DNA of 12,031 nt, taken from an uncultured Phycisphaeraceae bacterium (lineage in GTDB: Bacteria > Planctomycetota > Phycisphaerae > Phycisphaerales > UBA1924). Positions 518 to 7,196 of this stretch are shown piece by piece (positions within the stretch are counted from its first letter, which is position 1; each line of letters starts with the position of its first letter). Below the pieces are notes generated by a model that saw nothing but the letters and a program-made list of their open reading frames with translations, searched no databases and had not been told where the DNA came from. The stretch is taken from assembly GCA_964392425.1 (NCBI GenBank), contig CAYMQF010000001.1, positions 51,446 to 63,476 on the forward strand, in the 5' to 3' direction. The translations under genes were made by a program, and so were the position numbers.

Positions 518-1795
518 TTGAAGTGGGCCAATCATAAAATCAGCGTCGGGTTCGTCGCTCTCTTTCTGGTCAGCGAGATCGGCGCCCAGCCCTGCCAACC
601 TGCGTGGAGCGCGACGGCCGATGCGACGATTGTCAACGGGGGTGTCCTTGCGTTGCGTTCGGTCAGTGCGGGAGTCGTTTCGCCGGGGCTGTATGTCGCA
701 GGCTCGTTCACCATGATTGACAGCGTGCCGTTTTCTCGCATCGCTATGTGGGACGGCGCTGGCTGGACATCGCTCGGCGTCGGGCTCAACGAAGCAACAT
801 TCGCGCTCCATCTGCATCAGGGTTCTCTCTTCGCTGCGGGGCGGTTCATAATCGCTGGCGCTGTCTCAGCCAATCACATTGCGAGCTGGGATGGTGCTGT
901 CTGGACTGCATTGGGCAGTGGGCTCGACAACGATGCGCTCGCACTGACGACTTTTGATGCGGGGGCAGGCCCGGACCTGATCGCTGGCGGCTTGTTCACC
1001 GCGGCGGGTGGAGCAACCGCGCGAGGCATAGCCCGGTGGAGCGGCGGACAATGGAGCGCGATGGGAACCGGCTTGCAGGGAGGCGCCCGCGCAGCGACGG
1101 CGCTCGCGGTTCACGATGATGGCTCGGGCTCAGCTCTCTATGTAGGCGGCTCATTCCTTGGAGCCGGGGGAACGCCGTCACCCAATATCGTTCGTTGGGA
1201 TGGATCGTCGTGGTCGGCGCTAGGCAGCGGGCTCAACGGCGTCGTCAACGCACTGGCTGTCTACAACGGCGAACTCATCGCAGCAGGCGACTTCACCGCA
1301 TCCGGCGCAACATCAATGTCGCGGCTGGCGCGATGGGACGGCGTGGCGTGGTCAGCGTTTACCACAGGCGCCAACGGAACCATCACCGCTCTGCAAGTAG
1401 TCAATGCGCCATCGGGTCAACTTCTGCTCGCAGGCGGTTTGTTCTCCATGATTGGTTCAACTTCCGCTAGCAACATCGCTTTCTTCGATGGACTTGCATG
1501 GAGCGCGCTGGGCGCAGGCGCCAGTTCCCAGGTCCGCGCGATCGAACCAGTCACCGATGGCTGGCGGGTCGGCGCACTGGCGACCACCCCGGCAGGTTTC
1601 CCGGCACAATCCTTCAAAGAGTGGCTTCCCTGTCTGGCCACACCCGGCGATCTCAACGGCGATGGCTTCGTCAACAGTGCCGACCTTGCGACGCTCCTCT
1701 CCCAATGGGGTCTGGCTGGTGTCTCCGGCGATCTGAATGGCGACGGCGTCGTCAACAGTTCCGATCTGGCGACACTGCTCAGCAACTGGGGATAG
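518..1795 (+). CDS. Secreted beta-propeller-type repeat protein with a C-terminal double dockerin-like (Ca-binding) module
   Basis: 425-aa ORF with good GC3 bias. N-terminal signal peptide (MKWANHKISVGFVALFLVSEIGAQP). About seven ~48-aa repeats of the form (I/R)A-R/S-W-D-G-x-x-W-S/T-A-L-G-x-G-L-x-G-x-V-x-A-L-A-V...G-x-L-x-A-G-G-x-F. C-terminus carries two copies of GDLNGDG(F/V)VNS(A/S)DLATLLS(Q/N)WG, the dockerin type-I-like D-x-N-x-D-G motif. TTG start preceded by GGGAGGAG. Confidence 0.85.
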   Translation: MKWANHKISVGFVALFLVSEIGAQPCQPAWSATADATIVNGGVLALRSVSAGVVSPGLYVAGSFTMIDSVPFSRIAMWDGAGWTSLGVGLNEATFALHLHQGSLFAAGRFIIAGAVSANHIASWDGAVWTALGSGLDNDALALTTFDAGAGPDLIAGGLFTAAGGATARGIARWSGGQWSAMGTGLQGGARAATALAVHDDGSGSALYVGGSFLGAGGTPSPNIVRWDGSSWSALGSGLNGVVNALAVYNGELIAAGDFTASGATSMSRLARWDGVAWSAFTTGANGTITALQVVNAPSGQLLLAGGLFSMIGSTSASNIAFFDGLAWSALGAGASSQVRAIEPVTDGWRVGALATTPAGFPAQSFKEWLPCLATPGDLNGDGFVNSADLATLLSQWGLAGVSGDLNGDGVVNSSDLATLLSNWG

Positions 1796-1996: not shown

Positions 1997-3550
1997 ATGT
2001 GGACAGTTGCAGTCATAGTTGGCGGTTTGGTGATCGCGGGGACGATACTTTCGAGTGTCCCTCGGGCGCCAAAGTCGACCCGGCCCTTCATCGTGCTTGC
2101 AGCACTGGGGGTGTTGTTCGCCGCGGTCTTCGCCAGTTCGTTCCGATATGTCGGTGAAAACCAGGTCGGCATCGTGATCAAGAATGTCGGTCCGAGTTTG
2201 CCGCCGGGGCAGATCATCGCCACCGCTGGGGAAAAAGGACCGCAAGCGGCAGTCCTCCCGCCGGGTTGGCATTCATGGCTCTGGCCGGTGATCTACGACG
2301 TGCAGGTCGAACGGATCATCGAGATCGGGCAGGACGAAATCGGCATCTTGACCGCCCGCGACGGCCAGCCTCTTCCCGCGGGGAGTGTCTACGCGCCGGA
2401 ATGGGCCGACAGTGAAATCAAGAATATGCTCAATGCGAAGTATTTTCTTACGGATGGCGGCGGGTACAAAGGGCCGCAAACCACGGTGCTGACGCCCGGC
2501 AAACATCGTCTCAACACCAAGTTGTTTCAAGTTGAAAAAGCGCCCGTGACCAACGTCGCGCCGGCGACCGTTGGGGTGATCAAATCCAACGTCGGTCTGG
2601 CGCCAAAGATCTCGCCTGGAGAGGTGACACCATTGGTCGCTCGAAGCGAGCGGGGCATCTGGCGCACACCACTGCCCCCGGCGAAGTACTACCTCAACAC
2701 GAAGGCGTACGAGTTTATCATGATCTCGACACAGAAAAAAACCGTGCGATACATCAAGGCGCGCGGTGAGGGTGAAGAGCGAGAGATCACCGTGCGATCA
2801 TCGGATGGATTCACGTTCCCCGTGGACGTCCGCGTCGAATACATCATCGAACGGGCCGACGCGCCGATTGTGGTCGATCAGTTTGGTGATGACGGCGCCG
2901 CACTTCAGGAGCGAATCAACTCCGCCGTCCGCGCGACGTTTCGCAACAACGCCGAAGGCGTCAAAGCCCTTGATTATGTTCGGCAGCGATCGCTCCAAGA
3001 GTCCCAGTCGGAAATAGCGCTGGCTGAGGAGTTGAAGCCCTACGGCGTGACCGTCAGCGCCGTCCGCATCGGCGATGTCGGCGACGAACTCACGCTCGGC
3101 TCACTGCTCAAAACGCAGACCGATCGCGAAATCGCCCTGCAGGAGCAAGTGACGTTCCAAGAGCAACAGCGAGCCGCAGAACAGCAAAAAGCACTCACAC
3201 GCACTCAGCAAGAAGCGCAGGAGGAAAAACGCCTGGCGACCGCGCAATATCAGGTGCAAATCGCTGAGCAGCAAAAGCAGGAGCGCATCATCGCCGCCCA
3301 GGCTGAGGCGGAGTCCATCCGCATCGAAGCGGAGGCCCAGGCAGAGGCGTTCCGCGTGATCGCTTTGCAGATCGGGCAGGGCAACGCCGCACTTATTGAG
3401 CTGATGAAAATCATCGGCGAGCGTGGCATCGCCATCACACCCCGCGTCATGGTGACCGGCGGACAGGCAGGCGCCAGCGATGCGCAAACCACCGCGCTGA
3501 TCGGAACCATGCTCGACTCGATGGTGAGCAAGGAGCCGGCGCAGAAATAA
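1997..3550 (+). CDS. Flotillin-like SPFH/band-7 family membrane protein (FloT/YqiK type)
   Basis: 517 aa. N-terminal hydrophobic hairpin (VAVIVGGLVIAGTILSSV ... FIVLAALGVLFAAVFASSF). SPFH-like core. Long Glu/Ala/Gln-rich coiled coil with EA repeats (AEQQKAL...EAEAQAEAFRVIALQ) and a flotillin-type C-terminal tail (GNAALIELMKIIGERGIAITPRVMV). ATG with upstream SD. Strong GC3 bias. Confidence 0.9.
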   Translation: MWTVAVIVGGLVIAGTILSSVPRAPKSTRPFIVLAALGVLFAAVFASSFRYVGENQVGIVIKNVGPSLPPGQIIATAGEKGPQAAVLPPGWHSWLWPVIYDVQVERIIEIGQDEIGILTARDGQPLPAGSVYAPEWADSEIKNMLNAKYFLTDGGGYKGPQTTVLTPGKHRLNTKLFQVEKAPVTNVAPATVGVIKSNVGLAPKISPGEVTPLVARSERGIWRTPLPPAKYYLNTKAYEFIMISTQKKTVRYIKARGEGEEREITVRSSDGFTFPVDVRVEYIIERADAPIVVDQFGDDGAALQERINSAVRATFRNNAEGVKALDYVRQRSLQESQSEIALAEELKPYGVTVSAVRIGDVGDELTLGSLLKTQTDREIALQEQVTFQEQQRAAEQQKALTRTQQEAQEEKRLATAQYQVQIAEQQKQERIIAAQAEAESIRIEAEAQAEAFRVIALQIGQGNAALIELMKIIGERGIAITPRVMVTGGQAGASDAQTTALIGTMLDSMVSKEPAQK

Positions 3551-3620
3551 GAACGGTCGATGCGCAAGAAGCAGTGTGCAGCGCATCGAATCGTGTGTCA
3601 CCGTTTGGCAAAAACAACAA

Positions 3621-3658
3621 CGGCGGTCCGGAGTGCCGGGCCGCCGTCGTTTTCAATC
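3621..3658. terminator. Candidate bidirectional intrinsic terminator between the convergent flotillin gene (+) and FN-repeat gene (-)
   Basis: Inverted repeat CGGCGG-t-CCGG agtg CCGG-g-CCGCCG (3621-3646). It is flanked by an A-run (aaaaacaacaa, 3611-3620) on one side and tcgtttt (3647-3653) on the other, so a U-rich tail follows the hairpin in both orientations. A second 9-bp inverted repeat lies at 3557-3589 (TCGATGCGC...GCGCATCGA). Confidence 0.5.
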
Positions 3659-3709: not shown

Positions 3710-4264
3710 TCACGCAGCCTTGCAGGTGTTCTGTGCGGTCGGGTTGGCGAAGGGGCCAAAGCCGAAGGGGAAGCCGGGGACGAACCCGAAAGGCATCTGC
3801 GGCATGTTCGAAGGCATGCCGTTGTTCTCATTCATGTTTTCGTTTTGACCGTTGGCGAAGGGCATTCCCCAGCCAGCCATCGCCCACGGGTTGAAGTTCA
3901 TCGCGTTCATCGGATTGCTCCACGGGTTGAATCCGAAGGAGTTGAACGGGTTGGCGCCGAACGAGTTCATCGGGTTGAAGCCGTTGAAGTTCTGGAAGTT
4001 CGAGTTGAATGGCGTATTGAACCCATTGAAGTTGTTCTGGTTGTTGAAGCCATTGAGGCCGTTGAAACTGTTCAAGTTGCTGAAGCCATTGAAGTTCGGT
4101 GTGTTCGAGTTGAACGGCGTATTGAAGCCGTTGAAACCATTGAAGTTGTTGAAGCCGCCGAAGTTCGGGTTGGACCCAAAGCCGCCGAAGCCGAAGTTGT
4201 TGAACGGCGTGTTGAACGGGGCGCTGAAGGGCGTCATAAAGGGATTCATCTGTTCGATCTCCAT
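3710..4264 (-). CDS. Asn/Phe/Gly/Pro-rich low-complexity repeat protein (FN/FG-type repeats such as NFNGFNTPFNSN); no signal peptide; function unknown
   Basis: The minus-strand frame has strong C/G third-position bias (TTC/AAC/GGC codons) throughout the repeat. The two mirror + strand frames and the other minus frame do not. Likely start is ATG at 4262-4264 (MEIEQMNPF) or ATG at 4247-4249 (MNPFMTPF), the latter preceded by GGAG with a 9-nt spacer. The longer ORF extension to 4384 has poor GC3 and is probably 5'UTR. Stop TGA at 3710-3712. Confidence 0.6.
   Translation of the reverse strand: MEIEQMNPFMTPFSAPFNTPFNNFGFGGFGSNPNFGGFNNFNGFNGFNTPFNSNTPNFNGFSNLNSFNGLNGFNNQNNFNGFNTPFNSNFQNFNGFNPMNSFGANPFNSFGFNPWSNPMNAMNFNPWAMAGWGMPFANGQNENMNENNGMPSNMPQMPFGFVPGFPFGFGPFANPTAQNTCKAA
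3890..4235. repeat. Degenerate short-period (6-9 nt) tandem repetitive DNA (GTTGAAGCC / GTTGAAGTT units) with an internal roughly 100-bp-spaced duplication
   Basis: Repeated ttgaagccgttgaag / ttgaacggcgtattgaa units. Near-identical blocks at about 4003-4036 and 4100-4150 (cgagttgaa(t/c)ggcgtattgaa(c/g)cc...attgaagttgtt). The region is open in three long overlapping frames because of the repetition. Confidence 0.65.
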
Positions 4265-4536
4265 TTCTATTGCCAGTTGAGTGTGGCGCCGTGTGACTGC
4301 GTGCACACATGGTGAATGGCCGTCGCCTACGGACGGGGCCGGTTGATCCTGAAGAGCCATATCTGGACGGTCATCAGGGGTCATCCAGAGCCTTGCGACT
4401 TGCGGGCAGGCTCACTCACCACCACGGGGGTCTGCATCGGCGTGAACGGTCGGCGACTTGGCAGTGGATCACGATTTTCTGTCGGTTTCCTCAAACGCCG
4501 CGATCAACCGACCGCCTCCCGGTACGCTGCTGATCT

Positions 4537-5511
4537 ATGACGCGAAAAGCGGCCATCATGTTGGCGCTCCTCACTGCGATTCTCGCAGCAGCTATCGCAC
4601 TGCGATTGGTCGTTGGGCCGGAGGGTTTCGACCCGCCTCGCGACAGCGTCGAATGGGCGCTGCGATGGGATCGCATCCTCATCGCAATCACCGTCGGCTC
4701 CGCGCTTTCAGCCAGCGGCGTCATGCTCCAATCCCTTCTGCGCAATCCACTTGCGGCGCCAGCCATCCTCGGGCTCACCAGCGGCGCCGGGTTCGGCGTC
4801 ACGCTCGCCAGCTTTCTCGGTTTCACTTCAGCAGCAGCGTTGGGCGCGATCAGCGCGACCGCCGCAGCAGCAGTGCTCGGCTCCATCGGCGCCCTTGCGA
4901 TGGTCTACCTGCTCGCACAACGGCGGGGACTCATCGAGCCGATCTCGCTCATTCTTGTCGGCGTGGTGGTGAGCCTGATCTTCGGCGCCGGGATCGTTCT
5001 TCTCCAACATCTCATGCCCGATCGCGGCCTTGTCTCCACAACACGCTGGCTCCTCGGGTCCATCCGTGATGATGCGCCCACGTCGCTCGTCTGGACAGTG
5101 CTGATCTTCACTTTCGCAGCGGTGTCAGCGGGCGCCTGGCTCGGCCCCGCGATGGACGCTGCAGCACTCGGCGATGACGAAGCGCAAAGCGTCGGCGTGC
5201 GCATCCATCGACTTCGACTCATTCTCCTGGCGCTCAGTGGCGCACTCACCGCAGGCAGTGTGATTCTCGCTGGGCCCATCGGCTTTGTTGGATTGATCTG
5301 TCCCCATGCGGTTCGCTTGCTCATGGGGCCGACCAATCGGTGGGTGATGATCGGCTCTGCGCTTCTCGGCGCGTCGTTGATTGTCGCTGCAGACGCGATG
5401 ATCCGCGTGATTGATCTGGGCGCCGGGCGGATGCCTATTGGTGTGCTGACCGCTCTTTTGGGCGGCCCCGCGTTTCTTTGGCTGCTTCGATCACGGTGGA
5501 TTCGAGCATGA
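4537..5511 (+). CDS. ABC transporter permease, FecCD/BtuC family (iron-siderophore / heme / cobalamin-type importer)
   Basis: 324 aa, multiple transmembrane segments. Conserved FecCD motifs: ...SGVMLQSLLRNPLAAPAILGLTSGAGFG... ATG start at 4537. Stop overlaps the next start (ATGA at 5508-5511). Confidence 0.9.
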   Translation: MTRKAAIMLALLTAILAAAIALRLVVGPEGFDPPRDSVEWALRWDRILIAITVGSALSASGVMLQSLLRNPLAAPAILGLTSGAGFGVTLASFLGFTSAAALGAISATAAAAVLGSIGALAMVYLLAQRRGLIEPISLILVGVVVSLIFGAGIVLLQHLMPDRGLVSTTRWLLGSIRDDAPTSLVWTVLIFTFAAVSAGAWLGPAMDAAALGDDEAQSVGVRIHRLRLILLALSGALTAGSVILAGPIGFVGLICPHAVRLLMGPTNRWVMIGSALLGASLIVAADAMIRVIDLGAGRMPIGVLTALLGGPAFLWLLRSRWIRA

Positions 5512-6359
5512 CTCTCCGCGCTGAAAACATCACGTTTGGCTATCGACGCCGAGCGCCGGTATTGAACGAAGTATCGCTGACGATCGAGCCCGGGTCGGTG
5601 ACGGCGATCGTCGGGCCCAACGGCTCGGGCAAGTCCACACTTCTCAGGCTGTTGGCTGGCGTCGCATCGCCATGGTCCGGGCAAGCTTTGCTGGATGGCG
5701 ATTCGATCGCGGCTCTGTCTGCGAAAGATCGTGCTGCAAGGCTTGTGTATGTTTCGCAAAGGCCGACCATTGCCGGGCCGTATTCGGTTGAGCAGGTGGT
5801 CGCGATGGGGCGGTACGCACTGTCGCGCGATGATGACGCGGTGCTCTGCGCGATGCGATCGCTTGAACTTGAAGAGCATTGCAATAGGCCGGCGCTGGAA
5901 CTGTCGATCGGTCAGCAGCAGCGGGTAGCCATCGCACGGGCGTTGGCGCAGTTGGGGGGTGTCGCCGCGACGGGCGAGACGCCCATCCCACCTGTCGATC
6001 AAGTGCAGTGTGGTCATCTCAATGGGAAAGTATTTCTCGCTGACGAGCCGACCTCTGCGATGGATCCACGCTACGTCGCGCTGACCATGCAGTTGCTCCG
6101 CTCTCTCGCAGGGCAAGGCGTTGCGGTGGGCGTCGTGCTCCACGACTTGTCATCAGCGCTGCGGTGGGCGGACCAAGTGGTGCTCCTGACGATTGCCGGG
6201 CGCGTCGCTGCAGCGGGGAAGGCGGGTGAAATCCTCACGCCCAATACACTGGAAGAAATCTACGAGGTGCCCTTCGAGTTGATCGAGCAGGGGGGTCGGG
6301 TCGCGCTGCTGGCCGTCGCTCCCGAGCGGGCATCGCCCACACTTTCCCCGAGCGTGTAG
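5508..6359 (+). CDS. ABC transporter ATP-binding protein (FecE/HmuV/BtuD-like) partnered with the upstream permease
   Basis: Walker A GPNGSGKSTLL. Signature LSIGQQQRV. Walker B VFLADEPTSAMD. H-loop VLHDLS. Preferred start is ATG 5508 (MTLRAENITFGY...) overlapping the permease stop; the ORF-track TTG at 5478 is a less likely alternative. Confidence 0.9.
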   Translation: MTLRAENITFGYRRRAPVLNEVSLTIEPGSVTAIVGPNGSGKSTLLRLLAGVASPWSGQALLDGDSIAALSAKDRAARLVYVSQRPTIAGPYSVEQVVAMGRYALSRDDDAVLCAMRSLELEEHCNRPALELSIGQQQRVAIARALAQLGGVAATGETPIPPVDQVQCGHLNGKVFLADEPTSAMDPRYVALTMQLLRSLAGQGVAVGVVLHDLSSALRWADQVVLLTIAGRVAAAGKAGEILTPNTLEEIYEVPFELIEQGGRVALLAVAPERASPTLSPSV

Positions 6360-6368
6360 AATGTCGCC

Positions 6369-7196
6369 ATGTTCCAAAACGGTTGGGTATTCTGGATCAT
6401 CATCGGCGCCACCGTGGTGCAGTGGATCTTCGGCAAGCTCCGTGAGCAGGCTGAGCTGACCCGCGCCAAACAGGGTCGCGAAAAACGACGCGTCGACAAC
6501 CTTCGGACGGGGCAAGGGGGTAGCGCCGGCGCATCCACCGTGAGCAGGTCCGCCCCAACCATCACCCAGCATGATCTTCAGGCTCGTCGCGAGGCGCAGC
6601 TCAAGGCGCTCCGCGATCGTCAGCGAGCTCTCGGCCAGTCGCAGACAGCCTCGACTCCAGCACCGCCGCGCACGACGCCCCGACCGGCCCCCAGCGCCTC
6701 AGCGCAGGCTTCCAGTTTTCCCACCACATCTTCTCGGCCTGTTCCTCAACAGCGATCGCTTCCCACGCCTCAGACCTCCCGGCAAGCCGCCGTCGCAGCC
6801 CAACGGGCGGCCCGCGCCAAGCAGATCCGCCTCAATCGTCAACGCCATCTTCAACAGCAACAGCAAAAACAGCAGGCCAAAGCGCAAGCCCAAGCTGCGC
6901 AGAGTTCGTCAGCGGGCGATTTACGGATCAGTAAACCGAAAAAATCGCGCATCTCCGCTCCCAAACAATCCCGCATCGCCGCTCCCAAACTGTCCCGCAT
7001 CGCCGCGCCCAAACAATCCCGCATCAGCCAGCGAGCCTTACTGGAGCAGCGTGAGATTCGGCCGACGACCACCTCGAACTTGCATGGAGAACGGGACGGC
7101 GGATCGTTGGCGCCGAGGACGCTCGACGATTGGCGCCGGGCGATCATCGCATCGGAGATTCTCGCTCCTCCCGTGTCGATGCGCGAGATGGAGTGA
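6369..7196 (+). CDS. Membrane-anchored low-complexity protein. It has an N-terminal TM helix and a Pro/Gln/Ser/Thr/Ala-rich linker, then basic SRIAAPKQ tandem repeats and a short C-terminal domain; function unknown
   Basis: 275 aa. Single N-terminal hydrophobic helix (WVFWIIIGATVVQWIFGKL) followed by a positively charged stretch, so the bulk is probably cytoplasmic. Long disordered region. Tandem peptide repeat SKPKKSRISAPKQSRIAAPKLSRIAAPKQSRIS. GC3 bias is good, in contrast to the overlapping Arg/Pro-rich alternative frame 6571..7410. Only 9 nt downstream of the ABC ATPase stop and 12 nt upstream of the peptidase start. Confidence 0.6.
   Translation: MFQNGWVFWIIIGATVVQWIFGKLREQAELTRAKQGREKRRVDNLRTGQGGSAGASTVSRSAPTITQHDLQARREAQLKALRDRQRALGQSQTASTPAPPRTTPRPAPSASAQASSFPTTSSRPVPQQRSLPTPQTSRQAAVAAQRAARAKQIRLNRQRHLQQQQQKQQAKAQAQAAQSSSAGDLRISKPKKSRISAPKQSRIAAPKLSRIAAPKQSRISQRALLEQREIRPTTTSNLHGERDGGSLAPRTLDDWRRAIIASEILAPPVSMREME
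6944..7024 (+). repeat. 24-bp tandem repeat, 3 full copies plus a partial one (tc[c/g]cgcatc[t/g]ccgc[t/g]cccaaac[a/t][a/g]), in-frame and encoding SRI(S/A)APK(Q/L)
   Basis: Copies at 6944-6967, 6968-6991 and 6992-7015, plus a partial copy from 7016. They differ at only 1-3 positions. Confidence 0.7.

Follow-up and report, generated by a model that had tools for sequence, protein, structure and literature searches.

What kind of protein could a bacterium make from a reading frame that is almost free of charged residues, and is such a frame a gene at all? This question is raised by a locus in an uncultured Phycisphaeraceae bacterium (assembly GCA_964392425.1, contig CAYMQF010000001.1, positions 51,446 to 63,476 of the forward strand). 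The whole stretch of 12,031 nucleotides (nt) that was analyzed is called the window below. Its initial annotation had described a minus-strand Asn/Phe/Gly-rich open reading frame (ORF) ending at 3710 with a product of about 180 amino acids (aa), and this frame is present. In this study, we found that the interval 3710-4249 on the minus strand is, as judged by comparison of loci, a monocistronic protein-coding gene of a previously undescribed family. The gene and its ribosome-binding site are as follows:

3710 to 4249, minus strand: coding sequence (CDS) of a 179-aa, charge-poor Asn/Phe/Gly/Pro low-complexity protein (MNPF...CKAA, then stop), defined by ORF, G+C content at third codon positions (GC3), codon score, orthologs, and the ratio of nonsynonymous to synonymous substitution rates (dN/dS)
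4259 to 4262, minus strand: Shine-Dalgarno sequence GGAG, 9 nt upstream of the ATG at 4249, with identical spacing in 8 of 8 orthologous loci

Start Site and Reading Frame

The start had previously been placed at 4264, from which the product would have 184 aa (N 25.5%, F 19.0%, G 12.5%, P 11.4%, M 6.5%) with E2, E4, E142, E146, and K182 as its only charged residues. From the ATG at 4249, the product has 179 aa, with 26% Asn, 20% Phe, 13% Gly, 12% Pro, and three charged residues, at positions 137, 141, and 177 only. The GGAG stands exactly 9 nt before ATGAAC in all eight loci. The upstream ATG belongs to the sequence ATGGAG at 4259-4264, which contains this GGAG, and three of the eight loci have CTG or ACG there and no ATG. 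The five codons between 4264 and the MNPF start are unconserved across loci, and every independent gene call on the orthologous contigs begins with MN[PT]F. Because the GGAG is invariant, the upstream ATG and the intervening codons are unconserved, and gene callers choose MN[PT]F, the CDS was set at 3710-4249 (179 aa). The MEIEQ N-terminus of the initial annotation is thus not protein sequence; it overlies the invariant ribosome-binding site, and the true start is MNPF at 4249. The in-frame extension up to 4384 looks non-coding (GC3 0.47), and the start is not at 4384.

The choice of the minus-strand frame was correct. GC3 is 0.85 in this frame, and the two other frames of the minus strand have 0.36 and 0.41. 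The synonymous-codon score agrees: at 0.22 it is the best of the six frames, and the nine neighboring genes span 0.08-0.24.

Conservation of the Gene in Orthologous Loci

Orthologs were found by synteny, by inspecting contigs that encode flotillin homologs for a minus-strand gene convergent to flotillin. The two neighbors of the low-complexity gene in the window are the following:

1997 to 3550, plus strand: convergent neighbor, a YqiK/flotillin-type SPFH membrane protein (Pfam Band_7, E = 9e-11)
4537 to 6359, plus strand: divergent neighbor, a FecCD permease and an ATP-binding cassette (ABC) ATPase (Pfam FecCD, E = 1.5e-71; ABC_tran, E = 2.7e-27)

At least 10 orthologs are present in Phycisphaerales metagenomes and metagenome-assembled genomes (MAGs). 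The syntenic check that had been proposed placed a low-complexity ortholog beside flotillin in eight loci. The following orthologs are convergent to flotillin and have no Pfam match:

L082: 212 aa
L084: partial, 101 aa
L085: partial, 67 aa
L086 (= L096): 181 aa
L087: 197 aa
L088: 178 aa
L115: 216 aa

In addition, the window's own flotillin is found on a 2.4-kb Joint Genome Institute contig (L001), together with the final 70 codons of the low-complexity gene, which had already been called there as a gene. Searching with a profile of alignment A1 yielded only three further members:

P0121: 221 aa
P0122: 148 aa (RMH27316.1, "hypothetical protein", from Planctomycetota MAG GCA_003696725.1)
P0123: 172 aa

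It had been suggested that frame-disrupting indels at orthologous loci would mark the locus as non-coding repetitive DNA. Every ortholog keeps the frame. The frame, the MN[PT]F start, and the K[AV]A-stop end are kept in all full-length members despite many indels, and GC3 in the sense frame is 0.81-0.97 in all seven full-length loci scored. The dN/dS of the low-complexity gene is 0.19-0.36 in the closest pairs and 0.32-0.45 in more distant pairs, compared with 0.08-0.22 for flotillin in the same genome pairs. The gene is thus under purifying but relaxed selection.

Two observations could be read as signs that there is no gene here, only non-coding repetitive DNA, or that the real gene lies on the opposite strand: the DNA contains imperfect tandem repeats, and the frame directly antisense to the gene is open as well, both in the window and in most orthologs. 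However, the antisense frame is open because TTA, CTA, and TCA codons are nearly absent, and the antisense frames carry their G+C excess on codon position 1 or have a poor codon score. The DNA repeats match only 64-80% and are therefore not a recent microsatellite-like expansion. The sense frame is favored by the conserved start, stop, and Shine-Dalgarno sequence, by the sense-strand terminator described below, and by dN/dS values under 0.5. Both alternatives, a gene on the opposite strand and a non-coding repeat, are refuted by the ortholog comparison, and we give them next to no probability.

The initial annotation had also guessed a planctomycete host, and rightly so. The biotin carboxylase (accC) of the window has its best matches, at 65-72% identity, in Phycisphaerales/Phycisphaeraceae MAGs, and close homologs of the YqiK-type flotillin share 66-85% identity, the closest being from MAGs named as Phycisphaerales/Planctomycetota. 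At two flotillin loci of 66-70% identity (L083 and L114), unrelated genes occupy the position of the low-complexity gene, and 80 accC-anchored loci, Planctomycetota ones included, contained no family member. On present sampling, the family appears restricted to a narrow subclade of uncultured Phycisphaerales. Its sole named member is annotated as "hypothetical protein". As far as the searches reported here reach, the family is unannotated, has no detectable relatives, and occurs in uncultured Phycisphaerales only. A composition scan for N+F also picked up a gammaproteobacterial accC-anchored locus in which perfect 9-nt tandem repeats, (RFN)n/(LNR)n/(GLN)n, form a stretch resembling an ORF (L064:12300-13034, minus strand). 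This stretch looks like simple-repeat DNA and is unrelated to the family.

Architecture of the Protein Family

The family product is a protein of about 150-220 aa that, by prediction, lacks a signal peptide, a transmembrane (TM) segment, and a fold, and it has a three-part architecture. The parts in the window protein are as follows:

4175 to 4249, minus strand: N-terminal motif MN[PT]Fxx PFxxPF...FGG (residues 1-25; alignments A1 and A4)
3842 to 4249, minus strand: repeat core free of D/E/K/R (residues 1-136) with imperfect FNGFN / NTPFNSN units, delimited by charge positions, patterning, and its outlier status against background
3713 to 3868, minus strand: C-terminal module (residues 128-179; alignment A5 of 10 sequences, and also A1 and A4)

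In the alignments, the N-terminal motif reads MN[PT]Fxx-PF-xx-[PST]F ... FGG, and M1, N2, F4, P7, F8, and F21 are invariant in the nine full-length members. The core varies in length and evolves rapidly. Its repeat unit differs by lineage, being FNGFN/NTPFNSN in the window, NTPWNGFG in L086, L091, and L115, INPM[SG]M in L088, and NPFNSINGNPFIS in L087. Common to these units are N-[TS]-P-[FWM] / NP[FWM] turns. The core is rich in Asn/Gly/Pro/Thr/Ser with an aromatic residue (or Met) every 3-5 positions, and this composition is retained while the units differ. The C-terminal module of about 50 residues follows the pattern [FM]G.P - x(6-12) - [ED]NNG[KM] - x - P[FMI]x[FYM]xPxFP[FY]G[FY]xP[FY] - x(6-9) - K[AV]A-COOH. 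In alignment A5, P3, P26, P31, P34, P39, K50, and A52 are invariant, and F33 and G36 are nearly so.

The first 114-183 residues lack D/E/K/R in all nine full-length members, and all charges sit in the C-terminal module. The composition had been called extremely atypical for bacteria, which was borne out when the longest run without D/E/K/R was compared with that in 1,522 coding-like ORFs (1.5 Mb of fetched loci). In this background, the median length of such a run is 20 residues and the 99th percentile is 65; the run of 136 residues in the window protein is an outlier, and family members fill most of the top ranks. Across the full-length members, Asn makes up 10-26%, Pro 11-18%, Gly 7-27%, and F+W 11-22%.

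Aromatic residues account for 13-22% of the family proteins at a median spacing of 3-5 residues. The window protein has 38 in 179 residues, one every 3-4 residues; the counts are 38-46 in F/W-rich members and 23-33 in the others. Their distribution is more even than in shuffled controls in seven of nine members (z = -1.6 to -2.9; window, z = -2.2). Adjacent aromatic pairs number 0 in the window protein against 7.9 expected, and 0-3 across the family against 3-10 expected. The earlier label of an FN/FG-repeat protein holds for FN, the dominant dipeptide (18 times), but not for FG as the main dipeptide, since FG occurs nine times in the 179 aa (6-20 times in relatives) and GLFG does not occur.

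A signal peptide and a TM segment are absent, as had been noted before, because hydropathy is low and the N-terminus has no basic or hydrophobic stretch. The highest 19-residue Kyte-Doolittle mean (KD19) is 0.65 in the window protein, and the maximum across family members is 1.19. AlphaFold2 with a four-sequence alignment gave a mean predicted local distance difference test score (pLDDT) of 45, a predicted template modeling score of 0.11, and no secondary structure. The model suggests that the window protein is probably disordered. Two other candidates were rejected: a collagen-like Gly-X-Y helix, since Gly is not at every third position, and a CaaX-like lipidation signal in "CKAA", since the Cys is absent in the L082, L086, L091, and L115 lineage.

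A Candidate Self-Associating Disordered Protein

Predicted disorder, evenly patterned aromatic stickers, and polar uncharged spacers, which are the sequence marks of sticker-and-spacer intrinsically disordered proteins, were all found in the family. Evenly spaced aromatic stickers are a mark of phase-separating prion-like domains (PMC8638251; bioRxiv 10.1101/2021.01.01.425046). The reading that we favor, tentatively and at slightly less than an even chance, is that of a cytoplasmic self-associating disordered protein of the sticker-and-spacer type that forms a condensate or gel. In the mechanism that we infer, selection would act on composition and sticker spacing and not on sequence. Multivalent aromatic self-association in the cytoplasm would then produce a dense, water-poor condensate or gel, and the conserved termini may be short linear motifs that dock the protein to a partner or control its turnover. 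The invariant K-[A/V]-A-COOH end recalls the Ala-Ala-COOH degrons recognized by ClpX or tail-specific proteases. Given 38 aromatics in 179 residues and zero core charge, strong self-association of some form, whether condensate, gel, or solid, is the most likely behavior predicted for this protein.

Several points weigh against a condensate- or gel-forming protein. Any short tandem repeat yields even aromatic spacing, which is therefore not independent proof of selection for liquid-like behavior. Two members, L088 and L089, show no significant aromatic patterning, and the L088 repeats are Met-rich (INPM). Only four sequences underlie the AlphaFold2 model, whose low confidence is therefore weak support for disorder. 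A protein with 20% aromatics and no charge might also just be insoluble or amyloid-like and not liquid. Finally, the genomic context of a convergent flotillin, a divergent FecCD importer, and a monocistronic gene is a conserved address that provides no functional handle.

The same composition is what a functional amyloid or prion-like switch would be built from, its Asn-rich, charge-free core forming cross-beta fibrils as a heritable or structural aggregate. Amyloid formation is classically associated with F/N-rich segments. Yeast-type prion domains are marked by just such a composition, in which an Asn content of 10-26% goes with more than 110 uncharged residues. When compared with the yeast-type description of at least about 60 charge-depleted residues rich in N/Q/G/S/Y, the family shows charge-free runs of 114-183 aa with 10-26% N, whereas 11-22% F+W and 11-18% P are atypical. 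N-rich disordered or prion-like candidates are known in bacteria, where they make up roughly 0.15-0.4% of proteins (PMC6400439). However, Pro (11-18%) and Gly (7-27%) occur throughout the core and break up long beta-strands, and evenly placed aromatics with few adjacent pairs are a pattern associated with liquid-like and not with solid assemblies (PMC8638251). An amyloid appears unlikely to us. Of the hallmarks of the secreted functional amyloids curli CsgA and Fap, a Sec signal peptide and a dedicated secretion/nucleation operon (csgBEFG, fapF), neither was found: the N-terminus is not signal-like (KD19 at most 1.19), and the neighbors are flotillin and FecCD/ABC.

Aromatic sticker-and-spacer disordered proteins are already well known in eukaryotes. 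To our knowledge, a stand-alone, wholly charge-free bacterial version with conserved termini has not been described before, and the bacterial condensate biology that we know of concerns disordered tails carried by folded proteins (PopZ, SSB, RNase E, Rho). If the condensate or gel reading is true, an autonomous bacterial gene for a charge-free polymer of about 20% aromatics would serve as a minimal natural model of phase separation driven by aromatics. The family would also show unusually clearly how composition, absence of charge, and sticker spacing are preserved by selection while the repeat sequence turns over.

Detection of the Family by Homology Searches

A word-indexed HMMER search of the window protein against 5.8 billion clusters gave no match, and neither did an exhaustive phmmer search against 1.84 billion representatives. 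In a local power test, phmmer would detect in-register relatives after about 60% of positions had been randomly substituted. At that database size, the true ortholog L082 had E = 16, with 117 bits removed as compositional bias. The exact sequences of the window protein and of five orthologs, which are called genes on public contigs, are absent from a collection of 15 billion proteins. The direct searches were empty because of bias correction and because most family members are absent from the protein collection, and they therefore carry little information on whether relatives exist.

Other approaches gave similar results. A protein scan of metagenome contigs returned 207 pattern matches, of which tblastn confirmed none, possibly owing to low-complexity masking or composition-based score adjustment. 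A degenerate DNA scan of metagenome contigs for the C-terminal motif gave 22 matches, one of them genuine (L096 = L086). On genome contigs, the flotillin scan gave no loci and the accC scan gave the 80 loci described above. The window protein had no Pfam match at E<=0.01, and no meaningful Pfam match was found across nine family members; a Chorion_1 match (E = 0.71) was dismissed as noise. No relative of the family was found in NCBIfam or PADLOC, and a PDB sequence search gave no match at E<=10. These results indicate that standard pipelines are in effect blind to families of such extreme low complexity. Since this family is missed by standard homology search, similar families are probably overlooked systematically.

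Putative Expression Signals of the Low-Complexity Gene

In addition to the ribosome-binding site, two elements flank the gene:

3609 to 3647, minus strand: intrinsic-terminator-like GC-rich hairpin (3620-3647) followed by UGUUGUUUUUG (terminator scan; RNA fold z = -3.0)
4436 to 4459, minus strand: bipartite element AAGTC-N14-CCGAT in the divergent intergenic region shared with fecCD, found in 7 of 8 loci

The hairpin is a single 12-bp GC-rich stem between the convergent genes with a T-rich tract on either side. It is probably a bidirectional terminator, predicted to serve the plus-strand flotillin gene as well. A hairpin with a U-rich tail was found 40-70 nt past the stop codon in all nine loci examined (the window and eight orthologous loci). 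The stems differ in sequence between loci while pairing is kept, and the hairpin is present also in L089, where the downstream gene is pepP and flotillin is absent. Among Phe/Asn codons, 85% end in C in the low-complexity gene and 66% in the nine remaining window genes (Fisher p = 0.0014). This codon bias is compatible with high expression, and the effect is mixed in orthologs.

The bipartite element, AAGTC-N14-YCGAT in general form, has identical internal spacing in seven of eight loci (the window, L086, L087, L088, L089, L091, and L115). Its distance to the fecCD start is about 77 nt in five of the six loci where that start is visible and 45 nt in L089; to the start of the low-complexity gene it is 94-234 nt. 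Read towards the low-complexity gene, the element has a spacing like that of extracytoplasmic function (ECF) sigma factor promoters (AAG-N17-CGA). It has no meaningful Rfam match, a mir-8229 match (E = 0.62) being dismissed as noise.

The strong Shine-Dalgarno sequence, the terminator, and the C-ending codon bias suggest abundant expression, as would befit a bulk or structural deposit, for example a prolamin-like store of amide nitrogen, or an inert filler, in either case with no specific interaction function. An amide-rich, Pro/Phe-rich, and nearly charge-free composition matches prolamins, and the repeat core is free to evolve while its composition is kept. On the other hand, the conserved N-terminal motif and the 50-aa C-terminal module with its invariant Pro, Lys, and Ala argue for specific recognition. 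Nitrogen content in itself is not conserved, the Asn fraction ranging from 10 to 26% among members, and we know of no bacterial precedent for such a deposit. We consider this explanation quite unlikely.

Genomic Context

Flotillin is adjacent to the low-complexity gene and convergent with it in eight distinct loci. The linkage that had been proposed therefore stands for these loci but is not universal, since L089 carries the low-complexity gene without flotillin. In L089 and L090, the gene lies between fecCD and pepP, flotillin being absent. The fecCD-ABC operon is the divergent neighbor in all seven loci where that side is visible, and in L089 the low-complexity gene, fecCD, the ABC gene, and a third gene are inverted as one block. 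Linkage to fecCD is thus at least as consistent as linkage to flotillin. Neither neighbor is predicted to be co-transcribed with the low-complexity gene.

NfeD, the usual operon partner of bacterial SPFH/flotillin proteins, is likewise encoded by a small gene adjoining a YqiK-type flotillin gene. In contrast, the low-complexity protein has no NfeD domain or TM segment, and its gene is convergent rather than operonic, has its own terminator, and loses the linkage in L089. Identity with NfeD was rejected because there is no Pfam match, no TM segment, and a bidirectional terminator between the convergent genes.

The FecCD/ABC operon of the window's clade (4537-6359) was found to lack a gene for a periplasmic substrate-binding protein. 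In more distant Phycisphaerales, such a gene lies directly upstream of fecCD (L002:5713-6930 and L014:3828-5105), in the position where the low-complexity gene sits, on the opposite strand, in the window's clade. The third gene of the operon (6369-7196, plus strand) encodes 275 aa with one N-terminal hydrophobic helix and a long Q/R/K/P/S/T-rich remainder, which carries SRI[AS]APKQ tandem repeats and is probably disordered. This product shows 36-64% identity in orthologous operons and has no Pfam, NCBIfam, or PADLOC match. On the other side, upstream of flotillin, 518-1795 (plus strand) encodes a Rax2-like beta-propeller protein that ends in a double dockerin/EF-hand tail. In four orthologous loci (L082:1-3276, L086:1-1384, L088:1-1318, and L115:1-2305), the syntenic block adds one or two animal-heme-peroxidase genes, some with dockerin. 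The pairing of Rax2-like/dockerin proteins with heme peroxidases is unusual, and these proteins are putatively secreted.

These neighbors bear on a further explanation, in which the low-complexity protein is exported by non-classical secretion through its conserved termini and serves as adhesive, envelope, or pore material of the surface matrix. The conserved MN[PT]FxxPF motif and C-terminal module fit this explanation, and the syntenic neighbors encode secreted dockerin-bearing proteins and heme peroxidases, which elsewhere cross-link matrices. However, there is no Sec/Tat-like signal, basic n-region, hydrophobic h-region, or TM segment (KD19 at most 1.19). No secretion-system genes are adjacent, the neighboring ABC system is a FecCD-type importer, and the low-complexity gene is oriented differently from the dockerin and peroxidase genes. 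An exported protein seems rather improbable.

Comparison with Known Systems

The likeness to FG nucleoporins and prion-like domains pointed out in the initial annotation holds in physico-chemical and compositional terms only and does not support membership of the FG-nucleoporin family, there being no Pfam match and no anchor domain. Neither Pfam Nucleoporin_FG/FG2 nor any other Nup domain matched the window protein (at E<=0.01) or nine family members (at E<=1), and no structured anchor domain was found, the whole protein being low-complexity at a pLDDT of 45. Within the reach of sequence methods, homology to FG nucleoporins is excluded. FG motifs of nucleoporins (FxFG, GLFG, or xxFG) are set apart by hydrophilic spacers of about 5-20 residues. 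A loose count-based definition of FG proteins asks for 5 FG in 200 residues, and the window protein and its relatives reach this count (bioRxiv 10.1101/076430).

A protein of the FG-nucleoporin-like permeability barrier of a planctomycete pore or compartment, as homolog or functional analog, might be expected to look in part like this family, which is charge-depleted, rich in N/G/T/S and Phe, has 6-20 FG per protein, and occurs in planctomycetes. Against this, the family has no sequence relation to any Nup family and no anchor domain, and its aromatics, mostly in FN, NTPF, and NTPW contexts, are three times denser than those of Nup98 (PMC9918544). In addition, it is limited to one subclade and absent from the close-relative loci L083, L114, and L002-L035, and no scaffold or transport-receptor genes lie nearby. 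We regard such a barrier protein as very improbable. There is also a slim chance that the family is an independently evolved, stand-alone former of an FG-domain-like cohesive "selective phase" whose termini dock at a membrane site. The candidate docking sites would be flotillin microdomains or the FecCD importer that lacks a binding protein. Such a phase could be a hydrophobic compartment with solvent-like properties, or a bacterial analog of the permeability phase in nuclear pores.

The favored reading of a condensate- or gel-forming disordered protein can be set beside several known systems. Cereal prolamins (omega-gliadin / C-hordein) are likewise amide-, Pro-, and Phe-rich, nearly charge-free, and built of short degenerate repeats such as the PQQPFPQQ of omega-gliadin, and they self-associate into dense deposits. 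However, they are eukaryotic proteins of the secretory pathway, rich in Gln where the family is rich in Asn, and unrelated to it in sequence; a storage role here is putative. Bacterial N-rich/prion-like candidates, such as the N-terminal domain of Clostridium botulinum Rho and the SSB linker, resemble the family in being bacterial, N/Q/G-rich, disordered, and sporadic (PMC6400439; PMC4703818). They differ in being appendages of conserved enzymes or DNA-binding proteins, neither aromatic-rich nor fully charge-free, whereas the family is encoded by an autonomous gene with conserved termini.

The prion-like domains of hnRNPA1, TDP-43 (C-terminal domain), and FUS share with the family a G/N/S-rich sequence, uniformly patterned aromatic stickers, and few charges. 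The TDP-43 C-terminal domain likewise uses F, W, and M with N, G, and S. These domains are, in contrast, joined to folded RNA-binding modules and contain some Arg/Lys/Asp. The family proteins are wholly low-complexity with zero D/E/K/R in the core, about twice the aromatic fraction, nearly no Tyr, and much more Pro.

Nup98-type FG domains combine extreme charge depletion with about 50 FG motifs, one per approximately 12 residues; water is a poor solvent for them, and they phase-separate at micromolar concentrations (PMC9918544). Each residue removed from their spacer lowers the saturation concentration 3-5-fold (PMC9918544). Nup98, Nup100, and Nup116 (GLFG type) share with the family disorder, charge depletion, N/G/S/T-rich spacers, and regular Phe cohesive units, and the number of stickers in Nup98 is comparable (about 50 FG motifs against 38-46 or 23-33 aromatics). 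They differ in using GLFG/FxFG every approximately 12 residues where the family has FN, NTPF, or NTPW every 3-5. Their chains of 500-700 aa carry an anchor domain and belong to the nuclear pore complex, whereas the family proteins are stand-alone, have 150-220 aa, and show no homology to them. If the FG-like character of the family is true, it would represent an independent evolutionary invention of FG-domain-like chemistry. By physical analogy, the closest counterpart of the family is the charge-depleted cohesive FG domain of Nup98, followed by the aromatic-patterned prion-like domains.

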